A stretch of DNA of 64,000 nucleotides from a candidate division WS6 bacterium OLB20 (GTDB taxonomy: Bacteria; Patescibacteriota; Dojkabacteria; B142; OLB20): NCBI GenBank assembly GCA_001567355.1, contig JYNZ01000003.1:274124-338123 (forward strand). The letters run 5' to 3'. The notes under the pieces are model-generated. The model saw only the letters and a list, made by a program, of their open reading frames with translations. It ran no database searches and had not been told where the DNA came from. The first letter of the stretch is position 1. Each line of letters opens with the position of its first letter. The position numbers and the translations under genes were made by a program. This document shows, piece after piece, positions 2,344 to 56,648 of the stretch.

Positions 2344-3561
2344 CTATTGTTTACCCAGTTCAGCGAGTGCCCGGCTGTCCTGTTCCTCGTATTCTTCGAC
2401 CTCAATATCAGGAACAATCGGGTCTTCTGCAGTAATATTCTTGCCTGACGGTGTCAGCCACTTCTGAAACACAAGCTGCAGGGTTGACCCGTCGCTCAGC
2501 GTGATCAGTCGCTGTTCAACACCTTTACCAACGGTTTTTGTACCGATAATCGTGGCGCGATCGTGATCCTGCAATGCTCCTGCAAAGATCTCGGAAGCAG
2601 ATGCACTGCCTTCATTGGTAATAACTGTTACCGGGACATCAAGCAGACGGCCCTGTCTGCGCACCGTATGTTCCACTTTGTTTCCGTTTCTGTCCTCTTC
2701 GCTGAAGATAAGTTTGCCCTGTTCAAGAAAATCGCCTAGGACGTATTCTACAGAGCTGACGTAACCTCCAGGATTATTGCGCACATCGACAACAACACCT
2801 TTGGGGTTTTTGCCTTTGAGCTCGGTTACAATTGCATCCCACTGGCTGTTAAAGGCCTCAACGGATTCTTCGGTAAACTTGTAGATCTTTATCTTGTAGT
2901 ATCCGTCACCGAGATCCTCGAGCATAATGTTGTCTAGGTCAATCTTCTCGCGTGTGATAGTTACCTCATAGCGCTCGGAGTTTTCGGGTCGGAACAAAGC
3001 CAGGACAACATCAGAACCTGCTTCACCCCGGATGCTGGCCGCAACTTCGTATACTGTTTTTCCCTGAACATCAGTACCATCGACTTCGAGAATAAGATCG
3101 CCAGGCTGCAAACCTGCTTTTTGCGCAGGAGAGCCGTCTATCGGACTTTCAACCACTGTAAATTCGCCCTCCTGGCGGAGTGTTGTGCCAATGCCTTCAA
3201 ATTCGCCCTTGTTGGAGCTTAGATATTGAGAGGTCTCTTCGGGGCTAAGAAAGGCCGTATAGCGATCATCAAGACCGCTTACGAGACCGCGTGCGGCTCC
3301 GTAAAGCAGCTGCTGCCCGTCAACATCCTTATCAATGTATTCAGAATCAATCATGTCCCATACCTCCCAGAGGAGTCCGACATCAACATTCTGGTGCTGA
3401 TCCTTGATGTCACCGCTCAGGTTATAACCTCCAGTGTTTCTTGGCTGCGAGCTGCTCTGCTGCAGATCTATGCGCCCCAGAAAAAAACCTCCCAGGAAGA
3501 ATATAACGATCAGGAAGAATCCGATCATAACTTTTGTTGCTGCTTTTGTCTGGCTGTCCAT
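2344..3561 (-). CDS. ctpA: carboxy-terminal processing protease (S41 family) with PDZ domain
   Basis: PDZ (GLQPGDLILEVDG), S41 core VVDVRNNPGGY and NEGSASASEIFAGALQDHDRATIIGTKTVGKG. Confidence 0.85.
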   Translation of the reverse strand: MDSQTKAATKVMIGFFLIVIFFLGGFFLGRIDLQQSSSQPRNTGGYNLSGDIKDQHQNVDVGLLWEVWDMIDSEYIDKDVDGQQLLYGAARGLVSGLDDRYTAFLSPEETSQYLSSNKGEFEGIGTTLRQEGEFTVVESPIDGSPAQKAGLQPGDLILEVDGTDVQGKTVYEVAASIRGEAGSDVVLALFRPENSERYEVTITREKIDLDNIMLEDLGDGYYKIKIYKFTEESVEAFNSQWDAIVTELKGKNPKGVVVDVRNNPGGYVSSVEYVLGDFLEQGKLIFSEEDRNGNKVEHTVRRQGRLLDVPVTVITNEGSASASEIFAGALQDHDRATIIGTKTVGKGVEQRLITLSDGSTLQLVFQKWLTPSGKNITAEDPIVPDIEVEEYEEQDSRALAELGKQ

Positions 3562-9710: not shown

Positions 9711-12700
9711 TTACGCCCTTGCCGTTAGATCCGACAGCCAGAGCATCGGTCCGGCATCAGGCTCGTACCATGTGTTATTAATCATCAGCAGTACCGTTGC
9801 CTGACCTGATGACGGTTCCCAGCTCTCGAGGGCTGTACCGATAACCATGCCTCTGCCGGTTGCCTTTTGAGCACGACCCGGCACGTCTGAAACGCTCAGT
9901 GCATCGCCTTTTGCAATTGGTTGTGACGTTGAGGCGATCTTGACCGGCACACGCCCTGCAAGAGCAAGGGGTTTGAAGTACCTGTAATCCAGTTCATTAT
10001 CAGGTGTGGAGGGGTTCAGCGTCAGGCCTGGATTTGTGGAGATAACACCGAGTACACGATCCCGCGATGAACTGTCGGACTTCTCGACAAGGAATCTGTT
10101 ATACAGATTTTCGTCAGAGTGTTCCACTGTTGATACGCTAACGATGTCACCTGCACTGATTGAAGTATCTGCTGTCTTTACGTATTCAGCGATGTCAGGT
10201 GTACCTGAGCCATTTGTCATATCACGCCATTCGTATGTACCACCGGAATTCTGTCTGCAGAGATAGATGGTGCCGTCCTCAGCCGCATCACGATTATAGA
10301 TCGTTGTACCGACTGTCGACGAATCACAGGTCGGCGCACTTCCTGTTGCAACATTTGCGTATACGATCCCTGCAGATGCACCCGTTATCACTACATTACC
10401 GCTGACAGTGATGTCGTCTGACAGCGCGAACCCGTCATTCGTGGAGTCCCAGCGGAAAGTCTCGGTATTAGTTCCGCCAAAGCTGAGTGTGATATCTCCT
10501 GCAGCTGTTGTGTCCTGTCCCGAATTAAGCATTACACCACCTGTAGCATCAAGACTGATATTGCCGGTCGAATCAATAAAGACATCTGTCTGGTCTGAGT
10601 AGATTTCAAACTCGCCACCCGTACCACCCCATACAGATGAATCAAGATCGATTGTAGCCCCGCCAGCGAGTCCAAGACCGGCAAAGAATTGTCCACTCCC
10701 TGCAGAAGATATCACCCAGGTCTGAATACCGGAAGAGTAACCGGTAACACCCCCTTGAGTTATATGAGTATAACTATCGCTTGGTGTATCACCTCCAAAA
10801 TAGCCCTGCCCCGTGTTATCAACCCTGAAACGTGTATTTCCGGCAACCTCTATATCAATCAGATTTGGATTACCCGCATTTGTCTCATTAATGGCAATAA
10901 TAGTATTTGCACCTGATGCAGTCTGTGCACTCCCCGGCTGCAACGTTACCGATGTATTGGCAGCAAGCAGATCAATACTTGTACTTCCATTGTAGAAGTA
11001 GAGATTTGTGCCGTTGTACCACAGATCCCCGTTTACAGGAGCAGACGGATCAACGCTGGCAGAAGGTGTTAGATTAATCTGTGCACTGCCAGCTGTTGGG
11101 GCCTTGATATCAAGCCAGGCATCAGGAGTTGCTACACCGATTCCAATCCGGTCTGCACTTCCGTCAGCGTAAAACAGGCTTGCATCTGTATCCCCTTCTA
11201 TGACAAAGTCAACCGAATCTCCGCTCTGATTGAACACAAAGCCGGAATTGTTTAGCTCCAGAATGTCAGCAGTTGTAAACTCAAGGCGGCCTGTGTTGCC
11301 GTTTGATGCATACAGGTCGATCTTGCCGTTGGCAGTTGCACCGGTACCGACACGCACCAGGTTGTCGCTGACATCGACACTGAATGAGCCTCCAAGACCG
11401 GTACCGCCAACTGCAAAGTCATCGGTGACACTTGTCAGGTAGGTTGCGCTTCCTGCATCAGTCAGGAATGAACTGAATCCGCAGTTTGTTTCGCTGGCAT
11501 CGCAGACCAGCTTGTCGCCCCAGTAAAGATCAGTAGTGGCAGGATTTGCCTGAGCTGATGTTGAAAGGTAGTTGTTCGCAGAACCGTTACCCAGATGGAT
11601 CAGATCTGCAACCTCAAGCCTGTCGTCTACTACTACGTAACCGGCATTGTTTGCGCTCAGTACAAGGTCCTCGTCACTGGCAAGGTCACCGGCCGTAATA
11701 TAGAACGGTGAATCGGACGTGATGCTGCTGGCTGTTGAATTAGTAAACACAAGGTCATTGGCAATCTGAACGTCACCGACACTGGCAAAGGTGGCGGGTA
11801 CATCAGCTCTGATACCGGTTGCAGAAATGCTGAAAATATCAGCTCCATTAATGTCGATATCAAGCAATGTACCGGTATATCCGCTGGCGGGGTTGATATA
11901 CAGAGCTGTTTCATTTGCTGCCAGCGCTGTACCAAGTGTTGTAGTACCGCTGAAGAGGAAGTCACCGTATGTCATTGCAGCTACATCATTGATATAGCCA
12001 AACTGGTTAGCTCCAAATCCAAACTCCAGACGGTCATCGGTCGTCTCATCATAACGGAAGAATGCATCGGCGTTAGTACCAAAGAACATGCTCTGGTCGT
12101 CCGCCAGAAGGACATTGCCACCTGAAAACTCCCAGCGGTCATCGGTTGTAAAGGTAATTGCACCTGTGTCACCGTCGCTTGCAAACATATTCAAGACACC
12201 GTTTGCAGTTGCACCGGTACCGATGCGGACAGTATTGGTGTCAACATCAACACTGAACGAAGATGCAAGGGTGCTGCCTCCGACTGCAAAATCATCTGCT
12301 GCCTGGGAAAGATACGTGATCGAACCCGAGTCTGTAAACAGCGAACCTCCTCCGAATGAAATACCGCAGTTTGCCTCACTTACATCGCAAAGCAGATCAT
12401 CACCCCAGTAAAGATCCCCGTTGGCACCTGCACCAACCGTACCGACACTGAGAACATCCGCAGTGTCAGTGCCAAGGTTGAGGTCACCGTCAATCTGCAG
12501 ATTACCGCTTTCATCAATACTGCCAACCTCTGTTGTCTCGCCATCATTATAGAAACTGATCCGGTAATCAGTATCACTGACGATATCAAGCAGAACGCTC
12601 ATATCTATCTCGGTATTGGATACATTGAAGTAATTGCCCCGCAGCACAAGCGCTCCGGAGTCTGCTGTAGCGCCTGTTGTCGAGTTATCAATAATGATGT

Positions 12701-51783: not shown

Positions 51784-53271
51784 ATGAGCAAAAGTAAAAT
51801 CGTAACAGTACTGGTAGTCATCGGAGTCTTTCTGCTCTTCTCGGGTATCGCTGCCATCGCGATTATTATATCACGCGGCGGAACGTTTACTGATGATGGA
51901 CTCGTTCTTGATTCAGGAGTGATGCGTATTTTTACCGAACCCGACAATATTCAGGCTACCTACTACCTAAACGATGAGCGCGTTGATCCTCAGGACAGAA
52001 GGGTGTTTGGTATCGTGGAGGGCGACTACAAACTGCGTATCGAGGCAGAAGGTTTTGCCACATGGGAAAAAATCGTCCGTGTAGATTCGGGGCTCGTACT
52101 TGATGTATTTGCCAAACTCTATCCCGAGAGCTTTTCTGCCCAGCAGTTTACTAACACCAATGTCGACAGGGCCTTCTTTTCACCTAATGGCGAGTACGTG
52201 TATTACTTCGTGAAAGAATCTCCGTTTGGAGCCAACAAGGGACTCTGGAAGATCCGGCTGACACAGGGAGGGTTTATTTTCAACTCCTTCGATTCAGAAC
52301 CGGAGAAGCTTTCAAACCTATCCACTCCCCTGCTTAACACAGTAAACGGCGGTGACTACGAGATTGTTCCCAGCATCGACAACAACAGACTGCTGCTGAT
52401 CGATCATGCGCGCGATATGCGGTTTATCCTCAATACCGGCAGTTTTACAGAGGCCGGGATTGTCAATCTTGACTCTCTGCTAGGGTTTAAGCCGGACAAT
52501 GTTTCGTGGTTTAATGGTTCCTCATCAGTCATTGTGCAGCACGAACAGGTACTTTTTGAGTACAACATTTCCAGCGGGGTCTCCACACTGATCACCTACA
52601 GTCCCGAAAAGCCTATTGTCTACGCTGCAGGAAACGGTGCTGTATATATTTACGACCACCTGACACAGCAGCTCGAAATCTATCAGAACCAGTCAGTCAC
52701 CCCCGTGGAGCTTGAAAACGTAACTCTGCCACAAGTGATCACCGAACTGCACACACCGCTCAACAACGAACGCTTTGTCATGCTGAAATCTGGAGCCGGA
52801 TCGTACTACTATCTTGATACAGAAAGCAGTCTCATCAGACAGATTCAGGATACCGCAATCAGCTTCCACCAGTTTGCACAGGACGGGCGCTCTGCTCTGT
52901 TTACCAAGGACAAGCGTGTCTTCACCTATACAGTGAGAGAAATCATTGCCCGCAACACAATTGAGACCAAGCTGACGGATACCGGTTTTGTTCTTGATTC
53001 GGAGGATGATACAGCAGGGTTTGTGCCTCAGTCGACACATATTCTGCATTATGCGAACGGTGAGGATCATACGATCAGCATTGCAGACAAGGATGGCGCC
53101 AACCATGTCGTGCTCCTGCAGAATGCCGGCATCAAAAATTCGGACTTCAGTGTGGACTCGGATGGAAGCACGTTCGTGGTATTATTGACAGATGAGATTG
53201 GCGATCAGGAATCTGCCAACGCAAATCTCTATACCATTGATCTGCAGACACCAAATCCCGCAGGTCAGTAA
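51784..53271 (+). CDS. membrane-anchored hypothetical protein with PEGA-like domain
   Basis: N-terminal TM (IVTVLVVIGVFLLFSGIAAIAIII), PEGA-like YKLRIEAEGFATWEKIVRV. Confidence 0.55.
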   Translation: MSKSKIVTVLVVIGVFLLFSGIAAIAIIISRGGTFTDDGLVLDSGVMRIFTEPDNIQATYYLNDERVDPQDRRVFGIVEGDYKLRIEAEGFATWEKIVRVDSGLVLDVFAKLYPESFSAQQFTNTNVDRAFFSPNGEYVYYFVKESPFGANKGLWKIRLTQGGFIFNSFDSEPEKLSNLSTPLLNTVNGGDYEIVPSIDNNRLLLIDHARDMRFILNTGSFTEAGIVNLDSLLGFKPDNVSWFNGSSSVIVQHEQVLFEYNISSGVSTLITYSPEKPIVYAAGNGAVYIYDHLTQQLEIYQNQSVTPVELENVTLPQVITELHTPLNNERFVMLKSGAGSYYYLDTESSLIRQIQDTAISFHQFAQDGRSALFTKDKRVFTYTVREIIARNTIETKLTDTGFVLDSEDDTAGFVPQSTHILHYANGEDHTISIADKDGANHVVLLQNAGIKNSDFSVDSDGSTFVVLLTDEIGDQESANANLYTIDLQTPNPAGQ

Positions 53272-53296: not shown

Positions 53297-53373
53297 GCAC
53301 CAGTAGCTCAGACGGATAGAGCAAGGCACTCCTAACGCCTAGGCCGCAGGTTCGACTCCTGCCTGGTGCACCA
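53297..53373 (+). tRNA. tRNA-Arg (anticodon CCU), CCA encoded
   Basis: Acceptor gcaccag/ctggtgc, D arm agctcagacggatagagc typical of tRNA-Arg, anticodon loop ctCCTaa (31-39 A/C mismatch), T arm gcagg-ttcgact-cctgc. Confidence 0.8.
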
Positions 53374-53382
53374 CTGCAACCT
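53354..53382 (+). repeat. 29-nt direct repeat, copy 1 (tRNA-Arg T-arm/acceptor 3' end + CCA + 9 nt)
   Basis: gactcctgcctggtgcaccactgcaacct; identical copy at 53549..53577. Confidence 0.85.
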
Positions 53383-53548
53383 GTGAACGAAGTGAACAGT
53401 TGTTGGAGTGAGTGGGACGTAGCTTTAGCGAAGTCCTCCACCAGTATGATTAACTATTTCCAGATGCAGCTCAGGTTCTCCACCTTCGCTTCACTCCGGC
53501 GGACTAAGCGGAGAGTATGCTCGCTTTCGCATCGCACTCCCGCTTGAG

Positions 53549-53577
53549 GACTCCTGCCTGGTGCACCACTGCAACCT
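53549..53577 (+). repeat. 29-nt direct repeat, copy 2 (att-like partial tRNA-Arg 3' end duplication)
   Basis: Exact 29/29 match to 53354..53382, 195 bp downstream. Confidence 0.85.
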
Positions 53578-53692
53578 TTAGCCGAAGTTTGCAGGTGCTG
53601 CGGTAAGATCCCGCTATCAGCAATGACAATCCGCATACACCGCGAGGTTCTTTCAACAGTTGCTGACTTTGATTCTCTGAAAGCTGTGAAGG

Positions 53693-54697
53693 CTATCTTC
53701 GTCTGTTCAGCATGCGTTCACGACGCAGATTCGCTCGTTCTATCGCTTCAGACATGTCTGCCTCAGGTTTTTTGACCAGCCTCACCATGAACACGCCCTC
53801 AGAGCTGGTATCATCTGCAGTGACAAGTCCGACTGACTCCTGACTGGTCTGAATGATCTTATGCTGTGATTCGACTGCAAAGTTATTCATGGTCGCAAAA
53901 TGAAGGAAGTCGGCAAGATTACGGAATGTCACAAGCCCCGGCTGTCTTGTGTAGTTCATCGCATAGACATGATCAGCATATGCGATGCCAAGTGACCGTG
54001 CCTCAGAACGTTCTGCGGACGCGATATTTGCCCAGTCAAACGGGAGATCCTCCTTCACAGGTCGCTTCCAGAGCTCTGCCTTGGCACGCATTCCATCATG
54101 GGTCCGGACTGCTTCTTCATCACTGACAGCGACAAATTTGACTACAAATGCTCCATCATCTTTCAGGGCCTGATGTGCCGTATTCATGATGGAACGGGCT
54201 GTCTGGTGCTCCATTCCTTCAAACAGAAATTCGCTTACAATCAGATCGGCTGTCTGATCCTGACCCTCAAGAGGACACGCCAGATTGTGCAGCAAAGCTT
54301 CTGAATCAGAGATACCTCTCTGCCCGATATAGTGCTGTGACCGTGCAATGCTGAGCGGATTAATATCATATGCGGAGTAAGATCCCTGCCTGTTGCCAAA
54401 CGCCTCATTGTCCATGTAAAACGCAAATTCGCTCGGCAGGCCGAAGCGCAATATACGTGATCCGGGATTTACTGCTACCTGTTCAAATCCTGCGCCGGGA
54501 TAATGCGGTGAGCGGACCGGACTAAGCCAGCCCCACTGGTAACCGTAGCCTACCGTGTACAGCGCTGTCTCGTATGAGACATCAAACCTGGTCGCAAGAT
54601 CATTAATTGAATTAGAAGGGTCATCAGGGTTTATTGAGAGTTTCCTGGACTCAAACCCTTCCCGTAAACCTGTCTGTGAAAGTATTTCGTTTCCCAT
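53693..54697 (-). CDS. hypothetical protein (possible class-I methyltransferase-like fold, weak)
   Basis: 334-aa ORF; ADLIVSEFLFEGMEH resembles MTase motif II but motif I is not evident. Confidence 0.45.
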   Translation of the reverse strand: MGNEILSQTGLREGFESRKLSINPDDPSNSINDLATRFDVSYETALYTVGYGYQWGWLSPVRSPHYPGAGFEQVAVNPGSRILRFGLPSEFAFYMDNEAFGNRQGSYSAYDINPLSIARSQHYIGQRGISDSEALLHNLACPLEGQDQTADLIVSEFLFEGMEHQTARSIMNTAHQALKDDGAFVVKFVAVSDEEAVRTHDGMRAKAELWKRPVKEDLPFDWANIASAERSEARSLGIAYADHVYAMNYTRQPGLVTFRNLADFLHFATMNNFAVESQHKIIQTSQESVGLVTADDTSSEGVFMVRLVKKPEADMSEAIERANLRRERMLNRRR

Positions 54698-54786: not shown

Positions 54787-55359
54787 ATGGACGGAGAGAC
54801 AAAGGCTTTACTGGTACAGCAGATACGATATTACGGTGAGAGCAAGATCTTTGACCTCAACCGTCGTGATGAGCTGATTGCCGAGCAGTCCTTTAAACTG
54901 TGCGAGCTGATTATCAACGCGTCCAGCGGGCTTCTCGGAGCCATAGGATTGTCAATCCTCATTTCGGAAAGCATCACACAGACAGTTGCGCTTATCCTGG
55001 CTGGCAACCTTCTCTTCATTATCTTTGTGATCTACCGGTCATTCAGTCTGCGCAAACAGATTCTGTCCCTGCGCAGGAGCGTAATCGAAAAGAAAGCACA
55101 TACCGATAGTGAAATCTTAACGCGCCTGACCGCAGAGTCCTATGAGCTCTTCCAGAAAGACTACGAGGCATTTGCCAATGCAATTGCTGCGATAAAAAAT
55201 GAGGAGAAAGAGGATCAGAAACCATCTGCTGAGGAAATTAACGCGGAGACCACCCGGATTATCCAGGCCATCTGGATCCTGCGCGCCTTCTTTATCCTGA
55301 CGCTTGTTCTGACCGCGTTTGCTGTTATTATCCAGCTGGGTCAGACTGTTTTTGCATAA
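54787..55359 (+). CDS. hypothetical integral membrane protein
   Basis: 190 aa, at least 3 hydrophobic helices. Confidence 0.45.
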   Translation: MDGETKALLVQQIRYYGESKIFDLNRRDELIAEQSFKLCELIINASSGLLGAIGLSILISESITQTVALILAGNLLFIIFVIYRSFSLRKQILSLRRSVIEKKAHTDSEILTRLTAESYELFQKDYEAFANAIAAIKNEEKEDQKPSAEEINAETTRIIQAIWILRAFFILTLVLTAFAVIIQLGQTVFA

Positions 55360-55404: not shown

Positions 55405-56013
55405 TTACTTCCTGGTCAGTTTACCCTGCATACCCATCAGTGGAGCTGCATAGGTCGAATAGTCGATAACCTCAACATGCTCAAACCAGAGCGCTATTTC
55501 ATCTTCTGCCTCGGCAACTTCACCGGATGCATGCACAAGGTTGTAAAACGGGCGCTTATGCTGATTGGCCAGTTCGGCGTTGTCAGATGAAAAGTCGCCC
55601 CTGATCGTACCCGGGGCTGCATTGATCGGGTTTGTCTCACCAACAAGCTTACGTCCGATCTTTACGGCATTCGGGCCTTCCCAGACCATTGCAAGAACCG
55701 GTCCGTAGGTCAGGTAGTCAACATTCCACTGTTTGACAAGCTTTCCGATCTCGATCGCATCATCGGTGCCCAGCTCTTTTACCGCATCAATCCCCTTCTC
55801 TTTGTACTCACTGAGGGTGCGTTCGCCTACTTTTCTGTACCAGCTCTCTGCATCGGGATAATGCGCTTTACCCATGTCTTCTGTACTCTGCAGAAATTCG
55901 AGCGCGACGAGTTTAAGACCAACTCGTTCAAAGCGCTTGATGATCTGTCCCATGAGACCGCGGGCGACACCGTCGTGCTTGACGATGATGACTGTTTTTT
56001 CTGTATTGCTCAT
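55405..56013 (-). CDS. ndk: nucleoside diphosphate kinase-like protein with about 50-aa internal insertion (paralog 1)
   Basis: NDK fold: IIVKHDGVARGL, catalytic-His region NLVHASGEVAEAEDEIALWF; 202 aa versus about 140 typical. Confidence 0.7.
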   Translation of the reverse strand: MSNTEKTVIIVKHDGVARGLMGQIIKRFERVGLKLVALEFLQSTEDMGKAHYPDAESWYRKVGERTLSEYKEKGIDAVKELGTDDAIEIGKLVKQWNVDYLTYGPVLAMVWEGPNAVKIGRKLVGETNPINAAPGTIRGDFSSDNAELANQHKRPFYNLVHASGEVAEAEDEIALWFEHVEVIDYSTYAAPLMGMQGKLTRK

Positions 56014-56033: not shown

Positions 56034-56648
56034 TCAGATAAATGCCTCGTACGAACCCGTATAGTCCGCCCGGTCATAATCACCGAGGTAGGTATATTTG
56101 TCGCCAAACCAGTGCTCGATCTCGCGTTCGGCCTCATCTGCTGCATCAGACCGGTGTACAAGGGTTCTAAAGACGATACGTCCGGACTTAACTGCAAACT
56201 GCGGAGTATCAAAGCCGAAATCACCGCGGATTGTCCCCACATCAGCCACAGTTGGATCGGTCTTACCCATCAGACGCTCCACAACCTTCACTGCGTGGTT
56301 TCCCTCCCATACTGCAATCAGTACAGGTCCGTCGACAAGGTAGTTTACCAGTGCGTCATAGATCTTTTTGCCGATCTCAAGCGGATCATCGGTTCCGAGG
56401 TCGGCTTTTACAGCTTTAAGATCGTGGTTGTAATTGTTCAGCGTTTTTTCACCCATAGCTGTCATCCATTCATCAGTACCGGGGTAATTGCCGCGTGCCT
56501 GTTCCTCTGTCGCCTGAATTAATCGCGCTGCGACAAGTTTCAGCCCGATCCGCTCCAGTCTGCTGAAGATCTCGCCGACAAGCCCCCGCTTTATCCCGTC
56601 CGGCTTGATCATGAAGAACGTCTTCTCAATGTTTGGCAGGTTGCTCAT
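56034..56648 (-). CDS. ndk: nucleoside diphosphate kinase-like protein with internal insertion (paralog 2)
   Basis: FFMIKPDGIKRGLVGEIFSRLE, NLVHRSDAADEAEREIEHWF; 204 aa. Confidence 0.75.
   Translation of the reverse strand: MSNLPNIEKTFFMIKPDGIKRGLVGEIFSRLERIGLKLVAARLIQATEEQARGNYPGTDEWMTAMGEKTLNNYNHDLKAVKADLGTDDPLEIGKKIYDALVNYLVDGPVLIAVWEGNHAVKVVERLMGKTDPTVADVGTIRGDFGFDTPQFAVKSGRIVFRTLVHRSDAADEAEREIEHWFGDKYTYLGDYDRADYTGSYEAFI

Follow-up and report, generated by a model that had tools for sequence, protein, structure and literature searches.

The question raised by this locus is why the 3′ end of an intact tRNA-Arg(CCU) gene recurs, as an exact direct repeat, a short distance downstream of the gene itself. 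The window, i.e., the whole stretch of DNA that was analysed (64 kb), originates from candidate division WS6 (Dojkabacteria) bacterium OLB20, and both proteins encoded next to the locus were 100% identical to proteins of this organism (TR69_WS6001000695 and TR69_WS6001000697). In the original prediction, the duplication was described as an att-like signature of integration into a tRNA gene, and three origins were proposed for it: the footprint of an excised element, a decayed element, or a very small non-autonomous element.

The tRNA gene and the two copies of the repeat were located as follows:

53297..53373, + strand: tRNA-Arg(CCU), intact, with encoded CCA (ARAGORN; Rfam tRNA model, 64.5 bits, full model matched)
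53354..53382, + strand: repeat copy 1 (attL-like), the 3′ end of the working tRNA; exact match, position taken from the Rfam model alignment
53549..53577, + strand: repeat copy 2 (attR-like), in the best reading the displaced original 3′ end of the tRNA; exact match, left side without significant similarity to the tRNA body

The anticodon was called by both ARAGORN and Rfam as that of tRNA-Arg(CCT) on the + strand, with the T-loop TTCGACT at 53351-53357. The tRNA-Arg(CCU) sequence of the window was identical to that of tRNA-Arg(CCU) of the distantly related Dojkabacteria cMAG.21. In the Rfam alignment, the innermost pair of the anticodon stem was found to be non-canonical (A opposite C, window 53327/53335).

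Within the 64 kb, the 29-nt direct repeat (GACTCCTGCCTGGTGCACCACTGCAACCT) was found at these two positions only, their starts being 195 bp apart, in agreement with the original prediction, which had also placed the second copy at 53549..53577. A chance control was performed on 100 dinucleotide-preserving shuffles, with matches allowed up to 3 mismatches. Not even one match to the 29-mer was obtained in any of them (0/100), corresponding to a chance expectation of none.

According to the Rfam model alignment, the repeat opens with the fourth base of the T-loop (TTC/GACT), G57. Its tRNA part amounts to 20 nt: the last 4 nt of the T-loop, 5 nt from the T-stem (3′ half), 7 nt from the acceptor (3′ strand), the discriminator and CCA. 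Beyond CCA the repeat extends 9 nt into the trailer (CTGCAACCT), and not 6 nt as had been supposed. The complete tRNA stands at the left, and the partial 3′ copy follows downstream in direct orientation.

Two further features are located immediately to the right of the copies:

53383..53412, + strand: tail after copy 1, with 18/30 positions shared in register with the tail after copy 2
53569..53594, + strand: native tRNA trailer hairpin CTGCAACCTT-tagccg-AAGTTTGCAG, an inverted repeat with 10 nt arms, 90% complementary, and a 6-nt loop

In-register identity between the two copies and their flanks amounted to 29/29 in the repeat and 18/30 in the next 30 nt, after which it dropped to background. 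The binomial probability of the tail similarity was 5e-5, and its score was reached by 3/500 shuffles. To the left of the copies, the tRNA body was no more similar to the sequence preceding copy 2 than expected by chance, and this boundary was sharp. For a single 59-nt duplication decaying neutrally, 29/29 followed by 18/30 has a probability of about 1e-4 by our own arithmetic, which argues for a crossover between related, diverged partners. The same pattern, identity followed by diverged flanks, fits a single crossover, the flank of one partner standing after copy 1 and that of the other partner after copy 2.

The tail after copy 1 reads as a diverged native tRNA trailer with a degraded hairpin. 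The trailer hairpin was intact only after copy 2, the corresponding arm after copy 1 being degraded. Since the intact hairpin follows copy 2 only, and since the genes to the right of it are resident at this locus in other lineages, copy 2 and the right flank are assigned to the original site. On these comparisons, copy 2 is followed by native DNA, which carries the following two genes (loci from other genomes are designated by L and a number):

53693..54697, − strand: 334-aa divergent class I methyltransferase-like gene, native flank; weak Methyltransf_12 match, homologues at the same locus
54787..55359, + strand: 190-aa predicted membrane protein, native flank; homologues at the locus in L009 and L141

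The 334-aa ORF probably encodes a divergent class I SAM-dependent methyltransferase of a fast-evolving family. This family is very rare: 4 proteins were matched among 1.84 billion representatives, and the best non-self match was 36% identical. The ORF also gave a weak match to a PHROG tRNA-methyltransferase family, and the gene is convergent to the tRNA gene. A homologue of the protein was found at the same locus in each of L140 and L141, adjacent to the NDK genes, the one in L141 carrying Methyltransf_11/25. The 190-aa protein was 53% identical to the product of the gene directly after tRNA-Arg in L009 and 56% identical to that of an L141 gene, which is paired divergently with the methyltransferase homologue, as in the window. 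Judged by these homologues, the 334-aa and 190-aa genes are old residents of the locus, not cargo. A third, decayed copy of the repeat, which would make the methyltransferase gene cargo, was considered and rejected, as no further match was found at up to 3 mismatches and the gene is resident in L140 and L141.

The wider neighbourhood includes the following genes:

51784..53271, + strand: 495-aa PEGA-domain protein, conserved across Dojkabacteria as the gene to the left of tRNA-Arg(CCU) (domain match and synteny)
55405-56013 and 56034-56648, − strand: tandem nucleoside-diphosphate-kinase genes of about 200 aa each (Pfam NDK)
44701-50792, + strand: run of ATP-grasp/RimK-like ligase genes with a Mur-ligase-like gene, upstream of MreB, conserved in L007 and L011
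9711-16142, − strand: 2143-aa ORF

The order PEGA - tRNA-Arg(CCU) - ... - NDK - NDK - Tmk - metallo-beta-lactamase - ComEC - ComEA was kept in about ten Dojkabacteria-like lineages, the PEGA proteins of which were 42-67% identical to one another. The gap between the tRNA and NDK was empty in cMAG.21/L011, L021 and L023, contained one to three different genes in L007, L009, L015, L020 and L022, and is occupied by the 334-aa and 190-aa genes in the window. The neighbours of the spacer are housekeeping genes (PEGA-domain protein, MreB, two NDK genes, Tmk, ComEC and ComEA), and the other scanned ORFs were either housekeeping or unannotated. No match to an integrase family or to another mobile-element family was obtained among the 38 window ORFs scanned.

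In each of the tandem NDK genes, the Pfam NDK match was split into two stretches, which suggests an insertion within each gene; the pair was kept in all Dojkabacteria loci examined. The run of ATP-grasp/RimK-like genes with the Mur-ligase-like gene may represent a peptide or polymer ligation pathway.

Between the two copies, the following features were recorded:

53383..53548, no strand assigned: 166-bp spacer, presumed residue of inserted DNA, non-coding; no family match, unique in the window
53494..53548, + strand: imperfect stem-loop, the last base of which stands directly before copy 2; −17.5 kcal/mol, only 1.9% of control positions in the locus being as good

The length of the spacer (53383-53548) agreed with the roughly 165 bp expected, and both short inverted repeats named in the original prediction (AGCGAAG/CTTCGCT and CTCCG/CGGAG) were present. 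The spacer had been described as free of ORFs; a 54-codon GTG-started frame (53383-53547, + strand) does exist and fills it, opening on the base next to copy 1 and ending two bases before copy 2, and the description holds to the extent that Pfam and PHROG searches of the spacer ORFs gave no match. By eye, no Shine-Dalgarno motif was seen upstream of this frame. Its exact fit to the spacer is probably a coincidence.

A search of the spacer against 4227 Rfam families gave no match, even at E-values up to 10. Its fold z-score was about −0.6 on either strand compared with shuffled sequence, i.e., there was no significant fold. These two results speak against the possibility, raised in the original prediction, that the second copy is part of a structured RNA gene. 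A second copy of the spacer was found neither in the 64-kb window nor in about 20 related loci, and the GC content across the locus showed no anomaly.

The region 53374-53700 was compared by blastn with phages, giving one 24-nt chance match outside the spacer, and with plasmids, giving nothing. Scans of viral contigs with two words from the spacer (17- and 18-mers) returned 0 and 2 matches, respectively; the latter two were attributed to chance, their flanks having no shared similarity. Copy 2 was also considered as part of a decayed whole tRNA pseudogene. This was rejected, as the tRNA body could be aligned with the spacer only at CACCAGTA (tRNA positions 2-9 in the local alignment), which is at chance level, and no second Rfam tRNA match was obtained.

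For comparison with other lineages, the 600 nt downstream of every tRNA in the fetched loci were scanned for exact copies of the 3′ part of that tRNA. Three further loci with tRNA 3′-end repeats were found in three Dojkabacteria-like lineages, with repeats of 12-17 nt and copies 76-177 nt apart:

L015/L016/L017/L019 (L015 4142-4153): tRNA-Arg(CCU), repeat TCTCCTGGTGCA, 12 nt, copies 76 nt apart
L020 (reverse complement 10917-10933): tRNA-Arg(CCU), repeat ATTCCTGTCTGGTGCAA, 17 nt, copies 119 nt apart
L023 (reverse complement 2218-2234): tRNA-Ala(GGC), repeat GATTCCCCTCAGCTCCA, 17 nt, 1 mismatch, 4 nt matching, copies 177 nt apart

In the control searches, where the 3′ part was sought upstream and the 5′ part downstream, matches never exceeded 10 nt. 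Each repeat matched the tRNA of its own lineage, and its start always fell in the T-loop or in the 3′ half of the T-stem. The spacers of the four loci (window, L015, L020 and L023) were unrelated in sequence, with spacer lengths of 64-166 bp and repeat spacings of 76-195 bp.

The tRNA of L018 was identical to that of L015, yet the 128 nt available for L018 contained no repeat. Hence the feature occurs sporadically, and the conserved ancestral duplication that had been named in the original prediction as the contrary case was not what the distribution showed. In the relatives L004/L011, L021 and L023, tRNA-Arg was observed without a second copy; the neighbouring protein was only about 50% identical, and the flanks were not alignable.

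In 4/4 loci, the best local hairpin ended at the base directly before copy 2 (Fisher-combined p ~0.009 against other positions in the same loci), the hairpins taken singly being significant only in the window and in L023. The hairpin may be the terminator of the last gene of a lost element, part of an attachment-site arm, or something more. Matches of 4-5 nt to the tRNA just left of copy 2 were also noted in the four loci and were set aside as too likely to be due to chance.

Sequences resembling tRNA 5′ ends were observed as well in several of the loci. In L022 (reverse complement), such a sequence (GCGCCTGTAGCTCAGTTGGATA), with a CCCGC/GCGGG hairpin after it, lies about 61 nt upstream of tRNA-Arg 2927-3002, and in L020 (reverse complement) another one (TGCACCAGT) lies about 85 nt upstream of the tRNA. 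A 5′-end-like fragment (GCACCAGaAGCTC) was present near the tRNA-Arg locus at L007 7508-7520. At L140 2680-2725, a sequence of this kind (GCGCTTGTAGCTCAGATGGATA) ends after the D-loop, at a palindromic contig end.

Exact scans were also performed with the repeats themselves. With the 20-nt tRNA part of the repeat, nothing was found in viral contigs or in JGI metagenome contigs, and the same scan of GTDB genomes returned only tRNA-Arg genes (L003-L005) and one chance match inside a coding region (L006). The 17-mer of L020 matched one viral contig, again inside a coding region and by chance. With the tRNA-Ala 17-mer of L023, 115 viral contigs were matched, their hosts being many and unrelated; this 17-mer represents a common tRNA-Ala end and is uninformative on Dojkabacteria. 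In cMAG.21 (CP129475.1), tRNA-Arg(GCG) (L003 285-361) and tRNA-Arg(CCU) (L004 1489-1565) were found to share the 5′ acceptor strand and an identical 3′ 20-mer, so that an integrase recognising that end would have two potential target genes. A search of the literature on Dojkabacteria prophages and on rtT yielded nothing directly relevant.

The two 29-nt copies are best read as the junctions of a Campbell-type insertion into the 3′ end of tRNA-Arg(CCU), the inserted element having since decayed; we put the probability of this reading at roughly 0.6. The incoming circular DNA would have carried, besides a diverged trailer, a tRNA segment of its own that began in the T-loop and included the 3′ end. 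A single crossover inside the identical block would have produced a working tRNA with an element-derived 3′ end (copy 1), while the original 3′ end and its trailer hairpin would have been displaced downstream (copy 2). Later deletion of almost all of the inserted DNA would have left 166 non-coding bases without a recombinase, and the remnant would now be immobile and probably functionless. For the spacer, we infer a foreign origin, and for the element, a formerly larger size.

The enzyme responsible would most likely have been a tyrosine integrase of the T-loop-targeting kind, presumably rather than RecA. The same product would be expected of RecA working on 29 nt of identity, in which case the T-loop boundary common to four independent loci would be left unexplained.

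The anatomy of the locus, the T-loop boundary, the native right flank and the recurrence in other lineages all agree with the att-like integration signature originally proposed, whereas its other expected companions, namely an integrase, an intact element or a polymorphism of occupied and empty sites, were not encountered. The variable gene content of the tRNA-to-NDK gap among Dojkabacteria was also counted in favour of a decayed insertion. Counted against it were the lack of an integrase in or near the spacer or among the 38 window ORFs scanned, the lack of an intact element bounded by such repeats in about 10 related lineages, and the lack in databases of a close OLB20 relative showing an empty site. 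In a symmetric recombinase core site, the 5′ half of the T-stem would be mimicked on the left of copy 2, and no such resemblance is present there. Likewise counted against this reading were the very small size of all four inserts (spacers of 64-166 bp), the lack of informative matches in viral-contig scans with the repeat and with words from the window spacer, and the lack of a GC anomaly across the window locus. The hairpin abutting copy 2 in 4/4 loci is not predicted by a random history of deletions and also counts against it.

Among the three origins initially proposed, the decayed element gives the best fit. Precise excision by a tyrosine recombinase restores a single copy, and the footprint of an excised element is thus mechanistically wrong. 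As for the very small non-autonomous element, the small size of all four inserts is in its favour, and the failure to find a second copy of the spacer is against it.

This last idea can be formulated as a miniature non-autonomous integrative element, i.e., a 195-bp unit of repeat and hairpin-ending spacer, comparable in size to an attP and moved by an integrase encoded elsewhere in the genome or in a phage. Four independent loci with small, non-coding inserts (spacings 76-195 bp) starting in the T-loop or T-stem would suit it, as would the hairpin ending at the base before copy 2 in all four (combined p ~0.009) and the lack of a larger element in any lineage. It is nevertheless improbable, given that the four spacers share no sequence, that the spacer of the window is single in 64 kb and unmatched in viral, phage and plasmid collections, that no integrase was found in the window, and that two of the four hairpins are not significant singly. 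Equally in need of weighing is a local duplication without foreign DNA, arising by slippage, unequal crossing-over or template switching, with copy 2 kept identical by gene conversion. A tandem copy of this origin predicts a whole 195-bp unit; the similarity observed ends after 59 nt, and the other 136 nt match nothing upstream or downstream. Although the tails are homologous (18/30), the GC content is native throughout and E. coli tyrT provides a precedent, identity of 29/29 next to 18/30 is not neutral decay, and a T-loop boundary common to four loci is unexpected from slippage; such a duplication is considered unlikely.

A functional RNA or regulatory module under selection could act as a pairing partner for the 5′ half of the tRNA, as a signal for processing or terminating the convergent transcripts of the tRNA and methyltransferase genes, or as a trailer-derived small RNA. 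The recurrence in several lineages, the exact match of copy 2 to its own tRNA in every case and the hairpin abutting copy 2 each time would be in line with such a role, and CACCAGTA in the spacer could, by reading of the sequence, pair with copy 2. This explanation is quite doubtful in view of the missing Rfam match up to an E-value of 10, a fold no better than that of shuffled sequence, the chance level of the CACCAGTA match, spacers that differ completely in sequence and length, and the lack of the feature in most lineages, including one with an identical tRNA. An assembly artefact, in which two strain variants were joined through a common tRNA end, is conceivable in a metagenome-assembled genome, where repeats below read length can be mis-joined. 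We regard it as highly improbable, as an independent assembly of OLB20 (a contig from a different run, SRR29904084) was 100% identical over 561 bp spanning the whole locus, and the 166-bp path was continuous in both assemblies. The repeat on the minus strand was considered, too, as the primer-binding site of a retroelement and rejected: the inclusion of 9 nt of genomic trailer in the repeat and the missing CCA in the repeats of L015 and L020 indicate a copy of DNA, not of mature tRNA. Finally, a more far-reaching proposal, to which only a low probability is given, is that Dojkabacteria might carry an undescribed class of miniature, non-coding, hairpin-ended inserts (spacings 76-195 bp) that target tRNA T-loops and are either mobile in trans or retained for trailer processing or termination.

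Taken alone, a tRNA integration scar is an ordinary, routine feature. For bacteria of the candidate phyla radiation, there is little documentation of mobile elements or of their attachment sites, and scars at one tRNA-Arg(CCU) locus and at least one tRNA-Ala locus in several deeply diverged lineages would point to repeated tRNA-targeted integration followed by rapid reduction in small genomes. The scars would also provide exact candidate attB sequences for seeking the still-unknown elements or phages of Dojkabacteria. In OLB20, the empty-site form would read ...GGTTC-GACTCC...CTGCAACCT joined to TTAGCCGAAG, and the circular junction would read CGCTTGAG-repeat-GTGAACGAAG. For annotation, copy 2 is to be treated as a tRNA fragment and not to be called a gene.

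When compared with known systems, the locus recalls the class II tRNA-targeting integrases, for which strand exchange takes place in the T-loop and the attP cores span the tRNA from the T-arm to its 3′ end, the core of Ms6 having 26 nt (PMC1762012). As in Ms6, which uses tRNA-Ala (PMC1762012), one end carries a complete tRNA and the opposite end a partial 3′ copy in direct orientation, and the repeated block runs from the T-arm region to or past the 3′ end. The block is 29 nt long here, compared to 26 nt in the Ms6 core, and in both cases the tRNA would remain functional because the incoming DNA restores its 3′ end. Unlike in att sites of the Ms6 type, only 166 bp lie between the repeats, without an integrase, an excisionase or another element gene; identity starts in the middle of the loop, without the 5′ half of the T-stem, reaches 9 nt into the trailer and gives way to diverged homology over the next 30 nt.

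Element integration is a recognised source of partial tRNA copies next to a complete one (PMC9897764). The locus resembles the partial tRNA genes of that prokaryotic catalogue in the direct orientation of the fragment relative to the full-length tRNA; the catalogued cases, however, enclose about 9-23 kb of element DNA (PMC9897764), compared to 166 bp in OLB20.

In E. coli tyrT/tyrV (the rttR/tpr region), the 3′ end of the tRNA likewise recurs, at intervals of about 180 bp, downstream of the tRNA gene. Upon examination of the tyrT locus, 178-bp tandem units were found, each overlapping the 3′ end of tRNA-Tyr, with whole units about 95% identical. In contrast to this tandem duplication, only 29 nt are identical and 30 nt weakly similar in OLB20, and no rtT-type Rfam match was obtained in the spacer, either at the gathering score or at E-values up to 10.

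The locus also shares with decayed islands, prophage remnants and cis-mobilisable elements the att-like flanks, the lack of recombination genes of its own and a presumed internal deletion. Described att-flanked elements without an integrase, such as the CIMEs of Streptococcus thermophilus, are kilobases long and bear genes, whereas the OLB20 locus appears shrunk to about the length of one attP site. The closest category is therefore that of a heavily decayed tRNA-integrated element or, alternatively, of an extreme, gene-free form of the att-flanked elements that lack an integrase.
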